From assembly GCA_964016885.1 (NCBI GenBank), contig OZ024751.1:19716001-19780000 (forward strand): a DNA stretch of 64,000 nucleotides. Direction: 5' to 3'. The notes beneath the pieces are model-generated. The model was given only the letters and a program-made list of their open reading frames with translations. It ran no database searches and was not told the DNA's origin. Within the stretch, counting starts at the first letter, position 1. Every line of letters begins with the position of its first letter. Of the stretch, positions 6,494 through 63,559 are shown in pieces. This stretch comes from Eledone cirrhosa. Taxonomy: Eukaryota. A program made the position numbers and the translations under genes.

Positions 6494-6746
6494 TGGTGGC
6501 TGCCAACTCGTTTTCGAGTACGGCCACTACTTTATATCCATGTAGGAGAACCCCTACCGATGCGCTGAACGAGTGTGACTTTTTAGTCCAGCCAGCGACT
6601 TGAACACTCTGGTACAAACACTACACTTGTGACAATTATTGACACATAGTGCTGGGCCCATGGTACCATGTGACGACAAGTGCAGAGAGATCTCCAGATA
6701 TAAAGCAATGCCTGTGCTGTGAAGCTTTTATAGTGAGCAAAGGCAC
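6494..6746 (-). mobile_element. 3' end of an RTE-like LINE encoding a C-terminal C2H2 zinc finger
   Basis: 6554-6625(-) encodes [23 protein letters not shown]; short 3' UTR and (TGTA)n tail; near-identical copies at 43435 and 43825. Confidence 0.75.
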
Positions 6747-6759
6747 ATACATACATACA

Positions 6760-7440
6760 TACTGCACAAAAGAGGAGGGCCAGCAGCTGACAATAAATGT
6801 AAGCCACATTGTTGCCAGCTGCGAAAGAATGTCATCTCGCTACTACCTCCCATGAGACACGATGGGATAGCTAGAACCATCTGGAACGCACTTCGGAAAA
6901 CAAAATTAACAACAAACGAGGAAAAATATATTGAGACGGATGGCACTAAGGAATACTGGTGGAACCTGAAAATAAAAACTACCACCAAATTAAAGCACAA
7001 CCGGCCTGATATTGTTGTTTGGTACCACACATTGAAAACGTGTTCTGTTGTGGAGATCAGCTGCCCACTTGTGGTAAACGTTGTCAGAAAAATACAGAAG
7101 GAGGACATCTACGGACCATTGATTAGGAGTTTACAAATCCAGTATCCAAGATACACCTTTAGCTTCATACCCATCATTATTGGAGCTACGGGTTATATAC
7201 CAACCCGCTTGGACCAAAGTATGACTGAACTTGGATTTGCGGACAAAAAGCGCAGCTCCCTAATTCATAGTCTACAAATGGCTGCGATAGCTGGCACCTT
7301 CAAAATTTGCAAAACATTCTTGCGATTCAAGGGATGACAATTTCTTTTCTTTTACAACCTTGCCACCAGGAAGGTGGCCGGTCAAAAAAAATATTCTCGA
7401 AATTAAGAGAAAGAGATAACATACATACATACATACATAC
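6760..7440 (+). mobile_element. 5'-truncated R4/Dong-like non-LTR retrotransposon (RLE endonuclease end)
   Basis: HIVASC (end of CCHC knuckle), frameshift, RHD, HNRPDIVVW..C.VVEISCP, K...Y, PIIIGATG motifs; (TACA)n on both sides. Confidence 0.88.
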
Positions 7441-9117: not shown

Positions 9118-9188
9118 TGACGTACATGGGACACGAACCCACATCTTTGGTTTGCTGGACCAATGCGTTACCATTACACTAACACACC
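9118..9188 (-). pseudogene. tRNA-like cloverleaf (AGC anticodon, Ala-like), probably pseudo-tRNA
   Basis: GGTGTGT-TA-GTGT/ACGC D-arm, TTGGT-CCAGCAA-ACCAA anticodon arm, GTGGG-TTCGTGT-CCCAT T-arm, GTACGTC-A; T-run downstream; C33 instead of U33 and 4 G-U acceptor pairs. Confidence 0.7.
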
Positions 9189-9403: not shown

Positions 9404-9484
9404 GCTCTGCTGACGATTGAAATCCAACCGTGACCATCTCCACTGAAAGTTTTCATGAAATAGTCTTTTAAGACTATACAGAGC
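9404..9484 (+). ncRNA. Type I hammerhead ribozyme candidate
   Basis: gctctg-CTGACGA-[t tgaaa..tttca t]-GAAA-tagtctt tt aagacta-TA-cagagc: perfect 6-bp stem I and long palindromic stem III. Confidence 0.82.
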
Positions 9485-10228: not shown

Positions 10229-10233
<5 letters not shown>

Positions 10234-10437
10234 AACGAGTAGGACCCCGACGGCTGAGCTCAAGCCGTTTCGACGGCTAATTCTGGACCCGAATTTGAGT
10301 CCAGAATTAGCCGTCGAAACGGCTTGAGCTCAGCCGTCGGGGTCCTACACGTTCCTATTACCCACTCTACTACCCTAAGTATTGAGTACTTTGGTGCGTC
10401 ATGGTCCATCTGGTTCCTTACCACATTTCCTTCGTTA
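10229..10437 (+). mobile_element. Foldback family A (~210 bp, (TA)n-embedded, half-hammerhead palindrome), reference copy
   Basis: 60-bp arms 10229-10288/10299-10358 with 1 mismatch, plus an 80-bp unique tail; other copies at 9236, 11414, 18233, 18343, 21085, 22186, 35499, 35951, 42513, 46235, 62632. Confidence 0.92.
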
Positions 10438-10477
10438 TATATATATATATATATATATATTTATTTAATTTATTTAT

Positions 10478-10688
10478 TATAATAACAGATTAAAGTTTAA
10501 GCAAAGAATCGCTGCTTTCATCCTTAACGGGATCTTCTGAAACTAAAAAAGAAGATCCCGTTAAGGGTGAAAGCAGCAATTTTTTGCTTAAACTTTAATA
10601 CTTTACGGTTTTTATATATTCATATATATATAATCCTTATCGAGCCCTCTTCGGATTTTAGTCTTCACATTTTTTATTATTACTATAT
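10478..10688. mobile_element. Foldback family B, with a hammerhead-like fold at 10494-10544(-)
   Basis: Inverted arms around 10545; homologous to 14866-15040 and 60940-61149. Confidence 0.85.
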
Positions 10689-11246: not shown

Positions 11247-11328
<82 letters not shown>

Positions 11329-11376
11329 GATTCTACAGGACTAGAACTGTTTCATTCTTTAGAAATCATCAGGAAT

Positions 11377-11377
<1 letters not shown>
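11329..11377 (-). ncRNA. Canonical type I hammerhead as a ~50-bp solo insert in (TA)n
   Basis: Minus: gattc-CTGATGA-t ttc taaa gaa t-GAAA-cag ttctagtc ctg-TA-gaatc. Confidence 0.85.
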
Positions 11378-11418
<41 letters not shown>

Positions 11419-11601
11419 GAAAATGTATGACCCCGACGACAGAGCTCAAGCTGTTTCGACCGCTATTTCTGAAATAGCCGTCGAAACGGCTTGAGATCTG
11501 CCGTCGGGGTCATACATTTTCCTATTACCCACTCTACTACCCTAAGTATTGAGTACTCTGGTGCGTTATGGTCCATCTGGTTCCTTACCACAACTCCTTC
11601 G

Positions 11602-11633
<32 letters not shown>

Positions 11634-11639
<6 letters not shown>

Positions 11640-11781
11640 TCTGAAGACGGCTTATATATGTGTTAGTATGTATATTTAATTTTGATAGTTTGTATAATTT
11701 TGTATAATTTTGTACATAGATCTGTTGAATATGCATGCCAATTCTAACACATATATATCCTAGAAACGATCGTTAAATAAT
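11634..11781 (+). ncRNA. Type I hammerhead with ~115-nt extended stem II
   Basis: attattt-CTGAAGA-[tatatatgtgttag...ctaacacatatata]-GAAA-cgatcg-TT-aaataat; perfect 7-bp stem I, palindromic stem III. Confidence 0.8.
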
Positions 11782-11978
11782 GAACTTTTTTTGTTTAATA
11801 TAAGGAACTGTTTCATTGTTTTATTCATTATTTTTTTAATATTTTATCTTGACTCTGTATTCCGTTTATCTTTCACCGAAAGTGATTTTTCATTGCATCT
11901 CTTCTTTCCATGATATCCGGATTACATTGAGTTCTTCATACGGATTGGACACTACCGTAAACTCTTGGTAGATTTATC

Positions 11979-14865: not shown

Positions 14866-15040
14866 ATAGTAATAATAATAAGTGTGAAGACTAAAATCGT
14901 CTTCCTGTTTTACTTCGGTTGCAACGTTTTTCGAAATATTTACTTCTGCGTTCACAGATTGATTTTTTCTTTAGTTTCAGAAGATCCCGTTAAGGGTGAA
15001 AGCAGCGTTTCTTTGCTTAAACTTTAATCTGTTATTTTAA
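14866..15040 (+). mobile_element. Family B copy with complete hammerhead-like fold 14973-15023
   Basis: agttt-CAGAAGA-t ccc gttaa ggg t-GAAA-gca..tgc-TT-aaact. Confidence 0.75.
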
Positions 15041-18300: not shown

Positions 18301-18345
<45 letters not shown>

Positions 18346-18527
18346 CGAAGGAAATGTGGTAAGGAACCAGGTGGACCATAACGCACCAAAGTACTCAATA
18401 CTTAGGGTAGTAGAGTGGGTAATAGGAACAAGTATGACCCCAACGGCAAAGCTCAAGCCGTTTCGACGGCTAATTCTGAATTAGCCGTCGAAACGGCTTG
18501 AGCTCTGCCGTCGGGATCATACTTGTT

Positions 18528-18572
<45 letters not shown>

Positions 18573-22063: not shown

Positions 22064-22322
22064 AGATATATTTGTGCTTATATATATATATATCAAGCGT
22101 TAACCTAATATATATCTTCCATATACTGTACCGATTGTGTTATATCTGTTCACCTTTTACACATATATATATATATATATATATCTAACGAAGGAATTGT
22201 GGTAAGAAACCAGATGGACCATAACGCACCAAAGTACTCAATACTTAGGGTAGTAGAGTGGGTAATAGGAACATTTATGACCCCGACGGCTTGAGCTCTG
22301 CCGTCGGAGTCATACTTGTTCC

Positions 22323-23473: not shown

Positions 23474-23729
23474 GGGTATATGTTTGTATAAATGTATGTG
23501 TGCATATATATATATATATATGGGTATATGTTTGTATAAATGTATGTGTACATATATATATATATATATGGGTATATGTTTGTATAAATGTATGTGTGCA
23601 TATATATATATATATATGGGTATATGTTTGTATAAATGTATGTGTGCATATATATATATATATGGGTATATGTTTGTATAAATGTATGTGTGCATATGGG
23701 TATATGTTTGTTTAAATGTATGTGTGCAT

Positions 23730-26548
23730 CATCATCATCATCACCGTTTTACGTCCGTTCTTCCACGCTAGCATGGGTTAGACGGGTTGTCCTGTTGTGG
23801 GCAGTGTCTGGTCGGCTGACCATGCCTTGCTCATACAGGAACTGATCTGGCTTGATTTCTACAGCTGGATGCCCTTCCTAACACCAACCTCATTTTCAGT
23901 GAGTGCTGGGTGCTTTTTCGTGGCGCCTACACGTCCACTTTACAGTGTGGGCTGGGTGCTTTTTTGCCGTGGCACCTCCACGACCACCTTGCGGTGGGGG
24001 GGGGGGCATATTGTTTATATGCTTCAGCATGTACCCATGGGAGGTCGGGTACCCTGTATTACTGCGTGACGCCAGAAGTCACGGTCGTGTGTCATTGACT
24101 TTGAGAGGTGTAGTTGGGTAAGGTCGGCTTTTATCACCTCATCCCAAGTCATCTTGGGTCTCCCCACTCCGCGGTTTCCATCAACTTCTAGTGCTCTGCA
24201 CCTTTTTATGCAGCTGTCATCCTTCATACGCATCACATGTCCATACCAGCGTAACCGCCTCTCCTGCACGCAGCATTTGATTCCTCTTATGCTCAGTCTC
24301 TCTCTCAATTCATTTATGCTTTGTCGTTCACGTATATTACTGTTACACATCCATCGGAGCATGCAGGCTTCGTTTCTCTCTAATCTACGTAAGTCTTCCA
24401 CCTTCAGCGCCCAGGTCTCACTACCATGCAACATCGCTGTTCGGATACACGCATCATACAGTCTGCCTTTCATTCTGAGGGAGAAGCCTTTTGCAGCTAG
24501 CAGTGGTAGTAGTTCCCTAAACTTCTTCCATCCCGTTCTTACCCTAGTTATTGTACTTTCTGAGCACCCACCTCCGTTGCTAATTCGGTCACCTAGGTAG
24601 CAGAAGCTGTCTACTGTTTCTACAGGACCCTCCCAGAGATTGGTGGTACTTGTTTCCTGTGGCTGTTTGCTTGCTGTTTCAGCACAGCTGCTGCATGTGA
24701 ATCCTACATTCTTAATTAAGCTTCCTGAGATCCCGCTACATCTCTTGTGTACCCATTGTTTGCATTTGGGGCAAAGAATGGAGTTCCTACCTACACCTTT
24801 CCTACATACTGAGCAAGGCCATTTCCCTGAGGGGATCTGGGTTCTGTTTTCTCGTCTACTTATAAGGACCTTAGTCTTTGTCATGTTGACTTTGAGGCCC
24901 TTTCTCTCTAGTCCCTGCTTCCAGGTTTGGAATTTATTCTCTAGTTCTACCATAGATTCAGCTATGAGTGCGAGGTCATCAGCATACAGGAGTTCCCATG
25001 GGCATCCGGTCTTAAACTCCTCCGTTATTGCCTGCAGGACTATGATGAACAGGAGAGGGCTAAGAACAGAGCCCTGGTGGACCCCAACCTGTACGCTAAA
25101 TTCCTCGCTATACTCATTGCCAATCCTAACTTTGCTGACTGCTCCCCTATACATGGCTTGTACCGCTTTCACAAGCCATTCATCTACTCCTAGTTTTCTA
25201 AGAGCCCACCAGATTACTGCACGTGGAACTCTGTCAAAGGCTTTCTCAAGGTCGACAAATGCCAAGTAGAGTGGCTTACTTTTAGCTAGGTACTTTTCCT
25301 GTAATTGCCTCACAAGGAAGAGCGCATCAGTGGTGCCTTTCCCTGGTACAAACCCAAATTGCATCTCGTCTATATTCACCCGGTCCCTAATCAGCTGTGC
25401 TATAACTCTTTCTGTTACTTTCATGACCTGGTCCATCAACTTTATACCTCTATAGTTTCCTCTATCTAGTGCATCGCCTTTACCTTTGTAGCAGTTGACA
25501 ATGATGCTACTGCACCAATCTTTTGGTATGGCCCCCTCTAGTATTACCTGGTTAACGATACGTGTGGTTATAGTGTGACCTACAGACCCAGATGCCTTCA
25601 GCATCTCGGCAGCTATACCCGATGGACCGGTTGCCTTCCCTATCTTCATATCTCTGATTGCCTTACTTACTACGCTGCCGCTGACTTGTACTGCTGGTCC
25701 CTCTATAGGGTCTACGTGGGGTAGGGTCTCTTCTTCCCATGCATTCTCCTCATTTAGTAATCTATCATAATGACTCTTCCATGCATCTTTCTTCTCAGCA
25801 CTTGTGAGGGCAAGCTCACCTTTATCATTCCGGATACACTTCTCTCCAATGACATCACAACTATCTCTGACACACTGCCTCGCAATCTTGAATACCTCCT
25901 GTTTCTGGTCCTCACGTTGTAAAACATGCTTGAATTTTCTATCCTCTGCTTCCCTCCTAGCTAAGTATACTTGTCGCCTAGCTTCCCTCTTGGTCTCTAT
26001 GTAATGTACCCTGCTCCCCCCGTTCTTCCATTCTTTCCATGCCTGTCTCTTGGCCTTGACTGCTTCATCTACCTTATTGTTCCACCACCAAGTCACTCTC
26101 CTCCTGCTTGAGGTCTTACTCCAGCCACAAACCTCATCCGTCGCCTCTAGTAAGTTATTTTTTAGGAACTCCCAGTTCTCTTCTACGTTAAATGTCTCTA
26201 TCTGTTCTTCTTTACTGTCGTAGGCGTTGAGTAAAATATCTTTAAATCTGTTACTGGTTGAGGGGACTTTCAGCTTCCAGATCTTTCTTCTCCAGGTTGG
26301 CCTCTGTTTCAGGGCTCGTCTAGTTCTGACCGTGAGGTCGCTGACAACTAAGCTATGTTGGGATGTACATTCCTCACTAGGGAAGGCTTTTGTGTTTACG
26401 ACCGTCCATCTGTCACGTCCTCTGATGAGGATAAAATCTAACTGACTAGAGTGCTCCCCTGATCTATAGGTGATCAGGTGGTTGTCGGGTTTTTTAAAGT
26501 TTGTGTTACATATCGACATGTCATTGGCGTCGCAGAATTCTAGAAGTC
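23730..26548 (-). mobile_element. RTE-clade LINE, 5'-truncated, recent
   Basis: (GAT)n tail, ~280-bp 3' UTR, candidate TSD tgtgcat at 23723-23729 / 26549-26555, uninterrupted ORF. Confidence 0.96.
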
Positions 26549-26549
26549 T
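24024..26549 (-). CDS. RTE ORF, 841 codons without stop: C-terminal APE endonuclease + reverse transcriptase + PHD-like finger (no native start)
   Basis: RLLEFC..ICNTNF, SQLDFIL, SQHSLV; [35 protein letters not shown]; FCYLG; [18 protein letters not shown]. Confidence 0.95.
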
Positions 26550-26727
26550 GTGCATATATATATATATATATATATGGGTATATGTTTGTATAAATGTATG
26601 TATGTGTATATATATATATATGGGTATATGTTTGTATAAATGTATGTATGTGTATATATATATATGGGTATATGTTTGTATAAATGTATGTGTATATATA
26701 TATATATATGGGTATATGTTTGTATAA

Positions 26728-35722: not shown

Positions 35723-35804
35723 GCTTCTCTGATGAGCTTTGGTTTTCCATCATAAATCCATCGGATTTATGAGGTTTTACAAAGCGAAACTGATCAGTAA
35801 GGGC
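35723..35804 (+). ncRNA. Canonical type I hammerhead within a ~310-bp insert (35588-35890)
   Basis: gcttct-CTGATGA-gctttg..tcataaatcc atc ggatttatga..caaagc-GAAA-ctgatcag-TA-agggc; stem III actgatcagt palindromic. Confidence 0.85.
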
Positions 35805-36085
35805 CACTAGGAGAGGTAAATATTTATATTATATTTTTTAATGTATTTTGAAAAATTGATTGAATTTTACTTGTTCTGCTTATCTTAATATATATATATA
35901 TATATGTGTGTGTCTTTACACAAACACACATATATATATATATATATATATAACGAAGGAAATGTGGTAAGGAACCAGGTGGACCATAACGCACCAAAGT
36001 ACTCAATACTTGAGGTAGTAGAGTGGGTAATAGGAACCAGTAAGACCCCGACAGCTGAGCTCAAGCCGTTTCGACGGCTAATTCT

Positions 36086-36145
<60 letters not shown>

Positions 36146-37854: not shown

Positions 37855-40800
37855 TTACAATTTGTAACAAATCAACAAGAAATCAACTCGGAGATCAGTG
37901 AGTCATTCCACTTAGAGCCACTACTTCTCCGAATTGAGAGATCACAGCTCCGATACTATGGTCATGTGGTTAGAATGTCTGGGGAAAGAATCTCTGAATT
38001 GAGAGATCACAGTTCTGATACTATGGTCATGTGGTTAGAATGTCTCAGGAAAGAATCTCTGAATTAAGAGATCACAGCTCCGATGCTATGGTCATGTGGT
38101 TAGAATGTCTCAGGAAAGAATCTCTGAATTGAGAGATCACAGCTCTGATACTATGGTCATGTGGTTAGAATGTCTCAGGAAAGAATCTCTGAATTAAGAG
38201 ATCACAGCTCCGATACTATGGTCATGTGGTTAGAATGTCTCAGGAAAGAATCTCTGAATTGAGAGATCACAGCTCTGAGACTATGGTCATGTGGTTAGAA
38301 TGTCTCAGGAAAGAATCTCTGAATTGAGAGATCACAGTTCTGATACTATGACATGTGGTTAGAATGTCTCAGGAAAGAATCTCTGAATTGAGAGATCACA
38401 GCTCCGATACTATGGTCATGTGGTTAGAATGTCTCAGGAAAGAATCTCTGAATTGAGCGATCACAGCTCTGATACTATGGTCATGTGGTTGGAATGTCTG
38501 AGGAAAGAATCTCTGAATTAAGAGATCACAGCTCCGATACTATGGTCATGTGGTTAGAATGTCTGAGGAAAGAATCTCTGAATTAAGAAATCACAGCTCC
38601 GATACTATGGTCATGTGGTTAGAATGTCTGAGGAAAGAATCTCTGAATTAAGAGATCACAGCTCCGATACTATGGTCATATGGTTAGAATGTCTGAGGAA
38701 AGAATCTCTGAATTAAGAGATCACAGCTCCGATACTATGGTCATGTGGTTGGAATGTCTGAGGAAAGAATCTCTGAATTAAGAGATCACAGCTCCGATAC
38801 TATGGTCATGTGGTTGGAATGTCTGAGGAAAGAATCTCTGAATTAAGAGATCACAGCTCCGATACTATGGTCATGTGGATAGAATGTCTGAGGAAAGAAT
38901 CTCTGAATTAAGAGATCACAGCTCCGATACTATGGTCATGTGGTTAGAATGTCTGAGGAAAGAATCTCTGAATTAAGAGATCACAGCTCCGATACTATGG
39001 TCATGTGGTTAGAATGTCTCAGGAAAGAATCTCTGAATTGAGAGATCACAGCTCCGATACTATGGGAATGTGGTTAGAATGTCTCAGGAAAGAATCTCTG
39101 AATTGAGCGATCACAGCTCCGATACTATGGTCATGTGGTTAGAATGACTCGGGAAAGAATCTCTGAATTGAGAGATCACAGCTCCGATACTATGGGAATG
39201 TGGTTAGAATGTCTCAGGAAAGAATCTCTGAATTGAGCGATCACAGCTCCGATACTATGGTCATGTGGTTAGAATGTCTGAGGAAAGAATCTCTGAATTA
39301 AGAGATCACAGCTCCGATACTATGGTCATGTGGTTAGAATGGCTCAGGAAAGAATCTCTGAATTAAGAGATCACAGCTCCGATACTATGGTCATGTGGTT
39401 AGAATGTCTGAGGAAAGAATCTCTGAATTAAGAGATCACAGCTCCGATACTATGGTCATGTGGTTAGAATGTCTGAGGAAAGAATCTCTGAATTAAGAGA
39501 TCACAGCTCTGATACTATGGTCATGTGGTTAGAATGTCTGAGGAAAGAATCTCTGAATTGAGAGATCACAGCTCTGATACTATGGTCATGTGGTTAGAAT
39601 GTCTGAGGAAAGAATCTCTGAATTGAGAGATCACAGCTCCGATACTATGGTCATGTGGTTAGAATGTCTGAGGAAAGAATCTCTGAATTAAGAAATCACA
39701 GCTCCGATACTATGGTCATGTGGTTAGAATGTCTGAGGAAAGAATCTCTGAATTAAGAGATCACAGCTCCGATACTATGGTCATGTGGTTGGAATGTCTG
39801 AGGAAAGAATCTCTGAATTAAGAGATCACAGCTCCGATACTATGGTCATGTGGTTGGAATGTCTGAGGAAAGAATCTCTGAATTAAGAGATCACAGCTCC
39901 GATACTATGGTCATGTGGTTAGAATGTCTGAGGAAAGAATCTCTGAATTGAGCGATCACAGCTCCGATACTATGGTCATGTGGTTAGAATGTCTGAGGAA
40001 AGAATCTCTGAATTAAGAGATCACAGCTCCGATACTATGGTCATGTGGTTAGAATGTCTGAGGAAAGAATCTCTGAATTGAGCGATCACAGCTCCGATAC
40101 TATGGTCATGTGGTTAGAATGTCTGAGGAAAGAATCACTGAATTGAGAGATCACAGCTCCGATACTATGGTCATGTGGTTAGAATGTCTGGGGAAAGAAT
40201 CTCTGAATTAAGAGATCACAGCTCCGATACTATGGTCATGTGGTTAGAATGTCTGAGGAAAGAATCTCTGAATTAAGAGATCACAGCTCCGATACTATGG
40301 TCATGTGGTTAGAATGTCTGAGGAAAGAATCTCTGAATTAAGAGATCACAGCTCCGATACTATGGTCATGTGGTTAGAATGTCTGAGGAAAGAATCACTG
40401 AATTGAGAGATCACAGCTCCGATACTATGGTCATGTGGTTAGAATGTCTGAGGAAAGAATCACTGAATTGAGAGATCACAGCTCCGATACTATGGTCATG
40501 TGGTTAGAATGTCTGAGGAAAGAATCACTGAATTGAGAGATCACAGCTCCGATACTATGGTCATGTGGTTAGAATGTCTGAGGAAAGAATCCCTGAATTA
40601 AGAGATCACAGCTCCGATACTATGGTCATGTGGTTAGAATGTCTGAGGAAAGAATCTCTGAATTAAGAGATCACAGCTCCGATACTATGGTCATGTGGTT
40701 AGAATGTCTGAGGAAAGAATCTCTGAATTAAGAGATCACAACTCTGATACTATGGTCATGTGGTTAGAATGTCTGAGGAAAGAATCTCTGAATTAAGAGA

Positions 40801-41195
40801 TCACAGCTCCGATACTATGGTCATGTGGTTAGAATGTCTGAGGAAAGAATCTCTGAATTAAGAGATCACAGCTCCGATACTATGGTCATGTGGTTAGAAT
40901 GTCTGAGGAAAGAATCTCTGAATTAAGAGATCACAGCTCCGATACTATGGTCATGTGGTTAGAATGTCTGAGGAAAGAATCTCTGAATTAAGAGATCACA
41001 GCTCTGATACTATGGTCATGTGGTTAGAATGTCTCAGGAAAGAATCTCTGGACAGATTTTATAGGCAAAACTAACCAGCAGGAGATCCAAGTGTAGATCC
41101 CAAGCAAGATGGTTGGATAACATCCATGAGCTTGGCTGGTCTCAGTTGGGGATACAGCCAGATCAGTTGGAGACGGTTGCTTCTGACAGGACCCG
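37855..41195 (+). mobile_element. Expander/Rex3-like RTE 3' remnant containing an internal satellite
   Basis: Collapsing the array restores SEISESFHLEPLLLRIERSQLRYYGHVVRMSQERISGQIL*AKLTSRRSKCRSQARWLDNIHELGWSQLGIQPDQLETVASDR. Confidence 0.9.
37931..41049 (+). repeat. 65-bp tandem satellite, ~48 copies
   Basis: Unit gaattaagagatcacagctccgatactatggtcatgtggttagaatgtctgaggaaagaatctct; starts at 37931, 37996, 38061, 38126... Confidence 0.98.
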
Positions 41196-41638: not shown

Positions 41639-42714
41639 TTGTGATATCAGTCTCAAAGTTAAATTGAATGTCATGCTTTCTCTAATATCAGAAGCAATAA
41701 ATTATTATTTATTTATCTACTATATTATAATATTTATTTACATAGCTTGTCATAACACCTCAATATTTTTCTAGTATGTCATTATATAGTCTGTATATTT
41801 TAAAAACGACGCAATGTATTATTTAAGATAGTATGTCGTTGTAAGAGGGAGTTTTCTCACGTTTTGAAGTCCTCCTTTGTGGAAGAGGGTCGGAATGGAT
41901 TCACCTTTTCTTTCATCTTTAAAAAAAAAATCAAAACAAACTTGTGCCCCAAATATCTTCTTTCTCCCTATCTCTCCCTATCTCTCCTTCTCTTGCCACA
42001 ACGTCTCCCTCCCTCCTCGCCGAAATAATTTCAGTTTTATATCAATAAAGAAAAGAATAGAAATAAAAGATGTGATGGTCATGGTATGTTCTCTCTTTCT
42101 CCCCCCTCTTTCTCTGTTCGTCTCTATCCCTCTCCCCCCTCTGTCTCTGTTCGTCTCTATCCTTCTCCCCCTCTGTCTCTGTTCGTCTCTATCCTTCTCC
42201 CCCTCTTTCTCTGTTCGTCTCTATCCCTCTCCTCCTCTTTCTCTGTTCGTCTCTATTACCCCCCTTTTCTCTGTTCGTCTCTCAACAACGTCCGCACCTC
42301 TCCCTCTCTCTCTCCTTTTCTCCTGTCTTTCTTCCTATATCTCTCCCTCTCACTCCCCAGTCTCTTTCTAAACGAGATGTTGTTCAACAATAGACGTTAC
42401 AAGTCAACCACCCTCTCTACATTGCCCTCATTTTTCCAACATAAAGCGTGAAACTAATAAGACTTTTGTACCTCTGTTTGCTGTCTCCTTGAACTATATA
42501 TATATATATATATAACAAAGGAATTGTGGTAAGGAACCAGATGGACCATAACGCACCAGAGTACTCAATACTTAGAGTAGTAGAGTGGGAAATAGGAAAA
42601 AGTATGACTCCGACGGCAGAGCTCAAGCCGTTTCGACGGCTATTTCTGGAATAAATTTAGTCCAGAAATAGCCGTCGAAACGGCTTGAGCTCTGCCGCCG
42701 GGGTCATGCTATTT

Positions 42715-42760
<46 letters not shown>

Positions 42761-44199: not shown

Positions 44200-44885
44200 T
44201 TGACACCTGTTAATTATATCGACATCTGTTAATTATATCGACAGCTGTTGATTATATCGACACCTGTTGACCACATCTCATCTGTTGATCACGTCACATC
44301 TGTTGATCGTGTCACATCTTTTGATCATGTCCATATCTGTTGATCATGTCCATATCTGTTGATCATGTCACATCTGTTGATCATGTCACATCTGTTGATC
44401 ATGTCACATCTGTTGATCATGTCGATATCAGCTGATCATGTCGATATCAGCTGATCATGTCGATATCAGCTGATCATGTCATATCAGCTGATCATGTCAC
44501 ATCTGTTGATCACATCGCATCTGTTGATCATGTCGATAGTCATATCTGTTGATCATGTCACATCTGTTGATCGTGTCACATCTGTTGATCACGTCACATC
44601 TGTTGACCATGTCTCATCTGTTGATCTTGTCTCATCAGTTGATCGTGTCTCATCAGTTGATCGTGTCTCATCAGTTGATCGTGTCTCATCAGTTGATCGT
44701 GTTTCATCAGTTGACCGTGTCTCATCAGTAGATCATGTCTCATCTGTAGATCGTGTTTCATTTGTTGATCGTGTCTCATTTGTTGATCGTGTCTCATTTG
44801 TTGATCGTGTCTCATCCGTTGATCGTGTCTCATCTGTTGATCGTGTCTCATCTGTTGATCATATTGATACCAGCTGATCACATCA
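44200..44885. repeat. 18-19 bp minisatellite tgttgatc(a/g)tgtc(a/t)catc with graded variants
   Basis: Direct repeats. Confidence 0.93.
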
Positions 44886-52985: not shown

Positions 52986-53060
52986 ACACCTTTCTATAAT
53001 TTCAACGTAGGTCTTTGGACGGCTTCAATTGTCTTTTTCGCGTGAGCTTTCGCCATTCTG

Positions 53061-53930
53061 CTGAGAATAAAACGATAGTTTGGACCACCGATAGTCCGGC
53101 ACGCGGCTGAAAATAAAACGATAGTTTGGACCACCGATAGTCCGGCACGCGACTGAAAATAAAACGATAGTTTGGACCACCGATAGTCCGGCACGCGACT
53201 GAAAATGAAACGATAGTTTGGACCACCGATAGTCCGGCACGCGACTGAAAATAAAACGATAGTTTGGACCACCGATAGTCCGGCACGCGACTGAAAATAA
53301 AACGATAGTTTGGACCAGCGATAGTCCGGCACGCGACTGAAAATGAAACGATAGTTTGGACCACCGATAGTCCGGCACGCGACTGAAAATAAAACGATAG
53401 TTTGGACCACCGATAGTCCGGCACGCGACTGAAAATAAAACGATAGTTTGGACCACCGATAGTCCGGCACGCGACTGAAAATGAAACGATAGTTTGGACC
53501 ACCGATAGTCCGGCACGCGACTGAAAATGAAACGATAGTTTGGACCACCGATAGTCCGGCACGCGACTGAAAATAAAACGATAGTTTGGACCACCGATAG
53601 TCCGGGATTCGGCTGAAAATGAAACGATAGTTTGGACCACCGATAGTCCGGCACGCGACTGAAAATAAAACGATAGTTTGGACCACCGATAGTCCGGCAT
53701 TCGGCTGAGAATGAAACGATAGTTTGGACCACCGATAGTCCGGCATTCGGCTGAAAATGAAACGATAGTTTGGACCACCGATAATCCGGCACGCGACTGA
53801 AAATAAAACGATAGTTTGGACCACCGATAGTCCGGCATTCGGCTGAGAATGAAACAATAGTTTGGACCACCGATAGTCCGGCATTCGGCTGAGAATGAAA
53901 CGATAGTTTGGACCACCGATAGTCCGGCAT
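53061..53930. repeat. 46-bp tandem satellite, ~19 copies
   Basis: Unit ctgaaaataaaacgatagtttggaccaccgatagtccggcacgcga. Confidence 0.97.
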
Positions 53931-55180
53931 TCCCACAACACCAATAGACCGACATTCCCACAACACCAATAGACTGACATTCCCACAACACCAATAGACC
54001 GACATTCCCACAACACCAATAGAGCGACATTCCCACAACACGAATAGACCGACATTCCCACAACGCCAATAGACCGACATTCCCACAACACCAATAGACC
54101 GACATTCCCACAACGCCAATAGACTGACATTCCCACAACGCCAATAGACTGACATTCCCACAACGCCAATAGACCGACATTCCCACAACGCCAATAGACC
54201 GACATTCCCACAACCCCAATAGAGCGACATTCCCACAACACCAATAGACCGACATTCCCACAACACCAATAGAGCGACATTCCCACAACACCAATAGAGC
54301 GACATTCCCACAACACCAATAGACTGACATTCCCACAACACCAATAGACTGACATTCCCACAACGCCAATAGAGCGACATTCCCACAACGCCAATAGACC
54401 AACATTCCCACAACGCCAATAGACCGACATTCCCACAACACCAATAGAGCGACATTCCCACAACACCAATAGAGCGACATTCCCACAACACCAATAGACC
54501 AACATTCCCACAACGCCAATAGAGCGACATTCCCACAACACCAATAGACCAACATTCCCACAACGCCAATAGACCGACATTCCCACAACACCAATAGAGC
54601 GACATTCCCACAACGCCAATAGAGCGACATTCCCACAACGCCAATAGACCGACATTCCCACAACACCGATAGACCGACATTCCCACAACACCAATAGAGC
54701 GACATTCCCACAACCCCAATAGAGCGACATTCCCACAACGCCAATAGACCGACATTCCCACAACACCGATAGACCGACATTCCCACAACACCGATAGACC
54801 GACATTCCCACAACGCCAATAGACCGACATTCCCACAACACCAATAGACCGACATTCCCACAACCCCAATAGAGCGACATTCCCACAACCCCAATAGAGC
54901 GACATTCCCACAACCCCAATAGAGCGACATTCCCACAACACCAATAGAGCGACATTCCCACAACCCCAATAGAGCGACATTCCCACAACCCCAATAGAGC
55001 GACATTCCCACAACACCAATAGAGCGACATTCCCACAACACCAATAGAGCGACATTCCCACAACCCCAATAGAGCGACATTCCCACAACACCAATAGAGC
55101 GACATTCCCACAACACCAATAGAGCGACATTCCCACAACACCAATAGAGCGACATTCCCACAACACCAATAGAGCGACAT
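53928..55180. repeat. 25-bp tandem satellite, ~50 copies
   Basis: Unit cattcccacaacaccaataga(c/g)cga. Confidence 0.97.
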
Positions 55181-55623
55181 AGAGATGAAAGAAAGATTTG
55201 ACTTCGGTGAGATTTGAGCGCTAAGAAAGGGAGGCAAATAATACAAGGCATTTTTTTGTCTTGTGTTCTAACGATTCTGCCAAACCATCATCTAAGTAAG
55301 TGCATGGGTGGGGGTGGGGGGGGAGGGAGAAAGGAAGAGAGGGAGGGAGAATGTGTGTCTGTGTATGACAAAATGTGTGCGTGTGTGTATATATATATAT
55401 ATGTGTGTGTGTGTGGATGATAGAACTCCAGCTGTATGTGTGTTTGTGTGTAAGAATGTTTATGTGTATATGTGTGTATGTGTATGAATATATATATATA
55501 TATATACATATGTGTGTATATATATGATGGAACTCCAGCTGAAATGATAAATGACTGCTGTCTAAAACTGTACCCAGTAGTTGTATAGTTAATGAGAACT
55601 GTAATCACAGACAGGGGGAGCTG

Positions 55624-60939: not shown

Positions 60940-61149
60940 TAGTAATAATAATAAATTTGAAGACTAAAATCCAAAGAGAGCTCGATAAGGAAAATATATA
61001 TCAAATATATAAGAACCGTAGAGCAAATATTTATTAAAATAACAGATTAAAGTTTAAGCTAAGAATCGCTGCTTTCACCCTTAACGGGATCTTAAGGGTG
61101 AAAGCAGCGATTCTTTGCTTAAACTTTAATCTGTTATTTTAATAAATAT
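60940..61149. mobile_element. Family B foldback copy
   Basis: ~58-bp inverted arms centred on cgggatc; homologous to 10478-10688. Confidence 0.85.
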
Positions 61150-61204
61150 ATATATATATATATATATAATATATATATATATATATAATATATATATATA
61201 TATA

Positions 61205-61446
61205 TACAATATTAAATAAATGGAAAACTATATTTATAAAACCATATCTATTTCATTATATATATTTCGGGGATATCATATTAACAATATGTTATGCCTT
61301 CATCAGACAAAATACAATATAAACAGTTTTATATTGTATTTTGTCTGATGAAGGCATAACATATTGTTAATATGATATCCCCGAAATATATATAATGAAA
61401 TAGATATGGTTTTATAAATATAGTTTTCCATTTATTTAATATTGTA
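61205..61446. mobile_element. Perfect 119-bp-arm palindrome carrying mirror hammerheads (61337-61402 +, 61249-61314 -)
   Basis: Arms 61205-61323 / 61328-61446, loop cagt; tattttgt-CTGATGA-agg..ccc-GAAA-tatata-TA-atgaaata. Confidence 0.88.
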
Positions 61447-61660
61447 AATATACTCCAAATATTTGTCGAGTGCTTTTATATCAGTTATAAATATTTACTA
61501 GTTGTAACCCAACAATTTTAAATATAACTTTCCATATATATATATATATATATTCCTTCGGAATTACCTAACACACACACATATATATATAACACGTTGA
61601 TAAATACATACAAATATCTACCATACATACATATTAGCGTATATATATATACATATGTAT

Positions 61661-62555: not shown

Positions 62556-62837
62556 ATAAATACCTAAAAAGTGTTCCTTACACATACACACATACACACA
62601 CACATACACACACACACACACACACATATATATAGGAACGAGTAGGACCCCGACGGCTGAGTTCAAGCCGTTTCGACGGCTAATTCTGGACTCGAATTTT
62701 TGTCCAGAATTAGCCGTCGAAACGGCTTGAGCTCAGCCTTTGGGGTCCTACTCGTTCGTATTACCCACTCTACTACCCTAAGTATTGAGTACTTTGGTGC
62801 GTTATGGTCCACCTGGTTCCTTACCACATTTCCTTCG

Positions 62838-62874
<37 letters not shown>

Positions 62875-63559
62875 TAAAGTGGTCCTTCATCAGTGATCTT
62901 CCAACCAACATCGGTATTTCTTCGCTAAGATCACTGATGAAGGACCACTTTATTCATATGTAACCCATTTGCAACTCCGCAGCACGTTTATTCTCATATA
63001 TATATATATATATAAAATATAACATACACCTATAACAGTAATTGGCAAAGTTGTCCACGGTGGGATTTGAACTCAGAGAGCAGAGATCATTCTACCCGAC
63101 ATTCTAATGACTTTGTCAATTCGCCGCCTCATACAGAGATTTATATATACACAAACATTCAAACATACATATACACATATACAATTATTTTATATACAAT
63201 ATATAAAGTACTTATATATTTATAATTACATATTATATCCGTATGTCACACACCAATGAAATGGCGTCAAAGCTGAAATGACTGTATCCAGACTTCTTGG
63301 GTGTTTATTATCTGCGTGGCTGATTATTTTATAATCCATCAATGGGTCATTATTTGAAATGACTCTTCAATAAATAGAAAGGTGTAAATGTGTCTTGTGA
63401 ACGATCGTTGTTATTGTAGTAGTTGTTGAGGTGTTGTAATTGAATGGAGATAGTTGATTGTAGTTACATCGTGGGGTGGGGCTGGGTGGCTGGGGTGGTG
63501 GGGTGGGTGGCTAGTATTGGGGAATGGTTTAAGAAGTGAAATCGTGGTTTCAAGGTGTG

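Follow-up and report, generated by a model that had tools for sequence, protein, structure and literature searches.

The window, i.e., the whole 64,000-nucleotide stretch of Eledone cirrhosa DNA analyzed here, carries at positions 11377 to 11329, on the minus strand, a complete type I hammerhead motif of 49 nt, as read from the sequence. The motif and its immediate setting comprise the following features:

11249-11307, unstranded: (TC)29 run, joined to the left TA run
11307-11328, unstranded: (TA)n run of about 11 units on the ribozyme's 3' side, in the place of the tail of sister copies
11329-11377, minus strand: type I hammerhead motif, 49 nt, from sequence, motif search, shuffles, and fold
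11377-11373, minus strand: 5' arm of stem I, from sequence
11333-11329, minus strand: 3' arm of stem I, with 5 of 5 Watson-Crick pairs with the 5' arm
11366-11372, minus strand: core CUGAUGA, from sequence, then U11365 opposite U11354
11355-11364, minus strand: helix II of 3 bp (11364-11362 with 11357-11355), closed by the 4-nt loop UAAA at 11361-11358
11353-11350, minus strand: GAAA, from sequence, preceded by U at 11354
11335-11350, minus strand: helix III arm of 4 bp (11350-11347 with 11338-11335), with an 8-nt loop containing a central CUAG palindrome
11333-11334, minus strand: predicted cleavage site after GUA, the cut being placed between 11334 and 11333 by the hammerhead consensus
11380-11414, unstranded: (AT)17.5 run on the ribozyme's 5' side

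The three hammerhead helices can form, with 5, 3, and 4 bp, and CUGANGA, GAA, the A15.1-U16.1 pair, an NUH site, and an open end in stem I, which are the core requirements of this type of ribozyme, are all present. At the base of helix II, U11365 faces U11354; the G10.1-C11.1 pair, usual but not universal at this place, is absent, and the U·U found instead has natural precedent. The TA runs enclose an insert of 51 nt (11329-11379), of which 2 nt lie outside the motif. The preliminary description had reported a hammerhead inserted in a microsatellite, with almost nothing but ribozyme in the insert, and both observations were confirmed, since 49 of the 51 nt belong to the motif. It had also called the hammerhead canonical; this is accurate for the 5-bp stem I, CUGAUGA, GAAA, the 4-bp stem III, and GUA, but not for the 3-bp helix II that opens on a U·U, the result with Rfam models, or the minimum fold, described below.

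A descriptor just loose enough to accept the motif gave no match in 400 block-wise dinucleotide shuffles of the window. With a looser descriptor, matches appeared in 7 of 400 shuffled windows, and three motifs were observed in the real one, while shuffling of the insert itself gave 1 fitting sequence in 200,000. The Rfam hammerhead models gave no match at the gathering score, and none was among the 47 matches listed at E ≤ 10. Collectively, the sequence at 11329-11377 is a real type I hammerhead motif, though not a textbook-canonical one. Separately, a 13-nt word common to the motif and 11805-11817 was treated as chance (E 0.043, with no CUGANGA partner), and a hammerhead-like match at 24982 on the minus strand corresponded to the YADD codons of a LINE.

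Fold prediction gave a lowest-energy structure of the motif that was not a three-way junction (z-score 0.07). The active fold was predicted at −2.6 kcal/mol and the minimum at −6.0 kcal/mol, a gap of 3.4 kcal/mol, and at 37 °C the monomer was predicted to have helices II and III paired for about 3% of the time, a share that did not rise at 15-25 °C. Helix II can slip onto the core GAA (predicted −4.0), and the TA flanks lengthen stem I, leaving the predicted energy gap of the active fold unaltered. The helix III arm is an interrupted palindrome, with 12 of its 16 positions complementary to a second copy, and the duplex of two such arms was predicted at −12.8 kcal/mol versus −1.4 for the hairpin; the central palindrome arises in 32 of 840 permutations of the loop. 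In the lowest-energy homodimer the arms are swapped (predicted −18.0 versus 2 × −6.0), with helix II in the slipped register. These energy models predict that the monomer misfolds and that the palindromic helix III arm favors a dimer. Hammerheads often fold better than such models say.

The preliminary description had proposed a search for genomic copies, and this was positive. When contigs of four public sequencing runs were aligned on 11317-11391 at 80% likeness, 5,077 matched in X1 and 202 in X4 (both labeled organism A, possibly the source of the window), 23 in X5 (organism B), and 6 in X7 (organism D). The aligned stretch took in 12 nt of TA on each side, and none of the listed X1 contigs extends across the locus. 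No RNA data set was among the runs listed as carrying the sequence, which bears neither for nor against expression. The thousands of distinct matching contigs indicate a high-copy repeat, though contig depth is no copy number. Details of individual records come from 30 of the 5,308 aligned records, and the figures for loose ends, where a contig leaves the reference, are those of the rows listed, a further 79 rows lying outside the listing. Among the records listed, record 18 of X5 (49 nt, depth 141) and record 26 of X7 (50 nt, depth 162) showed zero differences, so that copies identical over 49-50 nt exist under the organism labels B and D as well. The sole substitution among these records fell in loop II, at 11361. 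In six X4 records the match to the reference ends at loop II (loose end 11357), after which the consensus rejoins the helix II arm. One X7 contig was without 4 nt of the GAAA core, and consensus lines of two X5 records each gave a weak indication of an A-U to C-G change in stem I.

On the 3' side, a tail of about 16-25 nt, common to all four runs, leaves the reference at 11328 in 29, 4, 1, and 1 records of X1, X4, X5, and X7, respectively, with an agreement of 0.82-1.0, and in the X4 loose ends the tail is followed by TA. A second type of tail leaves at 11331 in 198 X1 records (agreement 0.59). In the window copy, TA takes the place of such a tail. On the opposite, 5' side, 457 X1 records depart from the reference at 11375-11377, where stem I has its edge, and their agreement is low (0.40-0.53); a subset of copies has upstream letters common to organisms A and D, and record 26 of X7, a multi-copy contig, carries 72 nt upstream at depth 162. 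Record 30 of X7 contains two copies head-to-head, the sole inverted record among those listed. Because sister copies have a 3' tail and upstream sequence, the bare window copy is a shortened copy and not the unit of the family, and the earlier suggestion that it is the minimal unit of the system found no support: tailed copies occur in all four runs, and some share upstream sequence.

The exact family pattern had no match in the metagenome and viral contigs that were scanned. The family is undescribed in the literature searched on hammerheads, Penelope elements, and retrozymes in cephalopods and octopus, and may already be catalogued in Repbase or Dfam; neither hammerheads nor ribozymes are mentioned in the main text of a study on Octopus vulgaris repeats (PMC13282606). 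In the supplement of PMC8557442, a file whose line breaks can hide matches, seven of eight words derived from the window or the family were unmatched, and the eighth matched a coding region and Hydra-1_aMil.

The surroundings of the motif are highly repetitive, with 49% of the window in tandem repeats and 223 TA runs. Five further hammerhead-like motifs of unrelated sequence were found in it, at 9410 (+), 11641 (+), and 35729 (+) and as an inverted pair at 61306 (−) and 61345 (+). The segments that bear them and other hairpin-containing features are as follows:

9404-9484, plus strand: hammerhead-like motif of unrelated sequence (9410)
11632-11782, plus strand: type I hammerhead-like motif (11641) of unrelated sequence whose helix II is long, with a 115-nt domain II, a palindromic helix III, and a core 6 nt from a TA run
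35725-35803, plus strand: hammerhead-like motif of unrelated sequence (35729)
61199-61452, unstranded: head-to-head pair of a third hammerhead-like motif (61306 minus, 61345 plus), with 125-nt arms that are 99% complementary, between TA runs
62872-62995: inverted (head-to-head) pair of half-motifs, 62893 and 62934
10232-10435, 18345-18529, 22185-22322, 35953-36089, 42515-42716, 62700-62838: example places of a hairpin-headed repeat

When each pair is counted as one segment, the core is no more than 17 nt from the start of four of the six hammerhead-bearing segments in the window. The hairpin-headed repeat, about 140-205 bp long and with a long perfect hairpin head of variable length, lies at 11415-11602 and recurs at 10 other places; TA follows its fixed end in 9 of 11 matches, and full-length bodies are 89-96% alike. 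It has the appearance of an element end, truncated and 5'-inverted, from another family that targets TA and has no recognizable hammerhead. A second hairpin-headed family lies between TA runs at 10461-10621, 14869-15036, and 60942-61145. Satellites with units of 65, 18, 46, and 24 bp are found at about 38400-41000, 44600-44750, and 53000-55300, and those of 65 and 18 bp contain CUGANGA words, with no hammerhead in them by the motif scan of the window.

Of the 215 unmasked frames, 126 were scanned; no host exon was recognized in them, and only a LINE reverse transcriptase passed the Pfam cut-off. This 5'-truncated LINE, presumably RTE-like, lies on the minus strand at about 23720-26552 and has an unbroken frame of 842 amino acids, with RVT_1 and a PHD finger inside the reverse transcriptase region. 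Apparent C-terminal pieces of two LINEs stand tail to tail at 6723-7337 (+), which we take to be a restriction-like endonuclease end, and at 6554-6727 (−), where a weak C2H2 zinc finger below the Pfam cut-off was assumed to be a LINE end. A tRNA-like sequence (46.9 bits) was observed at 9118-9188 (−). With the profile of the Hydra clade of Penelope-like elements, no ORF remnant was found anywhere in the window.

The hammerheads of 25 families of this clade are given in File S2 of Craig et al. 2021 (PMC8557442), and they resemble the motif at 11329-11377 in being of type I, with U...U-GAA, a helix III running from AC to GU, and a GUA site. A U at both sides of the helix II base occurs in 14 of the 25 families, a helix III of 3-4 bp from AC to GU in all 25, and exactly ACAG/CUGU in four; insertion in (TA)n is noted for 26 of 27. 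Hydra-clade elements have in addition a short 3' tail and a (TA)n target, as do the sister copies and the window copy, respectively. The differences within the same published set are that loop III is 1-3 nt in all 25 families but 8 nt with a CUAG palindrome here, that the 3-bp helix II lies at the short end of the clade's range, and that no ORF is attached here. The clade is present in Octopus (Hydra-1_oBim), but the hammerhead described there differs from ours. The family thus has a hammerhead of clade anatomy near the 3' end, though with a loop III longer than in any listed family, and the window copy is inserted in (TA)n, with TA also after the tail in the X4 loose ends. Membership in the Hydra clade is, therefore, likely, rather than established, because no ORF with reverse transcriptase and C-terminal GIY-YIG could be linked to the family.

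An independent scan of metagenome and viral contigs used the core of the motif, the U pair, and the helix III arms only. It gave 102 matches, of which 17 (several of them redundant) had stems I and II of at least 3 bp, and 85 were without those stems. In L027, a contig of 2.9 kb, the motif occurs at each end within an 89-nt terminal repeat that encloses an ORF of 745 amino acids; this repeat could be the assembly overlap of a tandem or a circle. The consensus of the ORF family contains the RWK, DKT, CxCX5C, CxxC, and CxH motifs, which are clade-defining for Hydra. The structure model of P0122, a relative 99% identical to the L027 protein (pLDDT 89.5), matched reverse transcriptases and telomerase, with E from 2.7e-8 to 1e-5 and TM-scores of about 0.3. 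Pfam and PDB sequence searches did not recognize the family, and a GIY-YIG match was obtained in 2 of its 36 members (best E 0.01). Its assignment as Hydra-type is based on the motifs and the fold. In L071, two successive copies of the same protein family as in L027 flank the motif, which lies after the first ends and before the second begins. These two loci have only the searched core in common with 11329-11377, and neither belongs to the motif's own family.

Elsewhere, the motif was found 52 nt before a (TA)n run (L055), beside a weak RVT_1 match (L050), and, in L022, L023, and L062, beside a different reverse transcriptase-like ORF that the Hydra profile does not match; the latter indicates that the pattern is not clade-specific. 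Nine of the 17 loci with stems had neither evidence of reverse transcriptase nor a TA run. The anatomy of the motif, judged from sequence, thus points to Penelope-like elements, and best to the Hydra clade, though it is not exclusive to it. As a separate observation, L022, L023, and L062, along with L015, L020, L029, and L050, form a group of metagenome loci that are richer in GC, have this hammerhead core, and share a tail downstream of it. L022 encodes a reverse transcriptase-like ORF of 929 amino acids (YMDD) with no match to Pfam or the Hydra profile, and the group is perhaps a divergent Penelope-like lineage. Hammerhead matches at L037:792-834 (+) and in L047 (−) have loops III of 10 and 9 nt, as long as that of 11329-11377, and no evidence of reverse transcriptase was found near them.

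Our preferred reading, with a probability of roughly 0.78, is that the insert is the extreme 3' tip of a Penelope-like retroelement, probably of the Hydra clade, which a very short insertion deposited in a TA repeat; within this reading, we infer the link of the family to an ORF, the insertion steps, and cleavage. The mechanism is borrowed from the Poseidon element PAc of Anolis, for which Frangieh et al. 2024 (PMC11167929) report in vitro nicking of AT-rich DNA, reverse transcription starting at two sites downstream of the hammerhead, giving an optional tail, an uncleaved RNA template, and a ribozyme that cuts only with protein present. By analogy, the GIY-YIG nuclease of the element would nick (TA)n, and the reverse transcriptase would begin just downstream of the ribozyme, on uncleaved RNA. 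If copying then stopped at the 5' edge of stem I, the ribozyme alone would be written into DNA. Tailed copies would come from a more distal start site, or the window copy may have lost its tail afterward. Carried over in this way, the Poseidon mechanism would account for an intact ribozyme in DNA, tailed and tailless copies, and the TA target. The 5' ends gathered at stem I would fit stalling at folded RNA, run-off at a transcript start just upstream, or diverse subfamilies. In the full element, the ribozyme would sit in a pseudo-LTR and cut tandem transcripts, probably with protein help or by dimerizing via the palindromic helix III, and the lone window copy, with no ORF, is likely inert or weak.

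The insert might instead be a solo monomer of a very small non-autonomous retrozyme, with a unit of about 50-80 nt, spreading by itself: tandem transcripts would self-cleave to unit length and circularize, and a Penelope-like protein would insert them in trans. A tandem with a period of 78 nt is seen at one X1 joint (depth 64.4), and two further go-back joints measure 44 and 40 nt, although each joint is found on 1-2 contigs among 5,077, and the 78-nt junction fits a partial tandem of a longer element too. The best-supported 5' loose ends lie at the stem I edge, as this explanation would have it, but many subfamilies could also give the low upstream agreement, and the sequence shared upstream between organisms A and D, up to 72 nt in a multi-copy contig, speaks against it. 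Window segments beginning close to their cores, and the units of 51-972 bp and solo monomers reported by Li et al. (10.64898/2026.07.22.740005), are in its favor; the window copy itself is tailless and not tandem. On balance, we consider this explanation unlikely.

A ribozyme retained by the host to cut a minus-strand host transcript at the locus is very improbable. The copy is intact, and exact matches to it occur under three organism labels, but a young multi-copy family would be expected to show such identity. The locus consists of repeats piled together, with LINE fragments as the only recognizable coding pieces, it appears in no listed contig of another run, and misfolding is predicted. 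The proposal that the ribozyme could cleave a host pre-mRNA accordingly found no support, given the lack of a host exon in the 126 of 215 unmasked frames and an active fold 3.4 kcal/mol above the predicted minimum. Finally, a chance arrangement of bases, which the lack of an Rfam match and of a folding signal might suggest, is already refuted by the shuffles of window and insert, the thousands of matching contigs, and the placing of the listed variation in loop II.

A further possibility, which we find rather doubtful, is that the family spreads mainly as ribozyme-only inserts of 50-80 nt. A Penelope-type reverse transcriptase would start just 3' of the hammerhead and end at its 5' edge, a tandem or circular form of 78 nt would exist, and the enlarged palindromic loop III would let dispersed copies pair and cut in trans. 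If so, these would be among the smallest mobile ribozyme units known, and the clustering of 5' ends at stem I, seen in this insert and three others of the window, would map transcript starts. Should most copies prove ribozyme-only with sharp ends, they would offer a genome-scale read-out of where Penelope-like reverse transcriptases start and stop, and a very small natural substrate for comparing monomer and dimer cleavage.

Regarding known systems, PAc provides the mechanism, although it belongs to another clade and its reverse transcription start sites lie 111-118 nt into the ORF (PMC11167929). Animal non-LTR retrozymes (PMC7229834 and 10.64898/2026.07.22.740005) resemble the motif in having a type I hammerhead with no ORF, and monomers and short units are known among them. 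They are defined by tandem units, at least two, whereas the hammerhead at 11329-11377 is solo, and the tandem joints of its family are on 1-2 contigs each. The axolotl HHR_Amex2 also has a U·U at the base of helix II, and it cleaves weakly alone (22% in 1 h) and better as a dimer (Cervera & De la Peña 2020, PMC7229834; Li et al., 10.64898/2026.07.22.740005).

The minimal hammerheads of metazoan Penelope-like elements (Cervera & De la Peña 2014, PMC4209133) have a long helix II, the G10.1-C11.1 pair, and little or no helix III, unlike the short helix II, U·U, and 4-bp helix III found here. They are like our family in occurring mostly as single dispersed motifs, in the palindromic helix III region, which is predicted to permit a dimer in the window motif too, and in forming opposite-strand pairs. 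The same source reports that solitary hammerheads derived from truncated Penelope-like elements are found widely across animal genomes. On the best reading, the insert represents a further family of Penelope-type ribozyme ends, present in high copy and slightly unusual in its loop III, within a class whose solo hammerheads are known to number in the thousands in genomes of animals.
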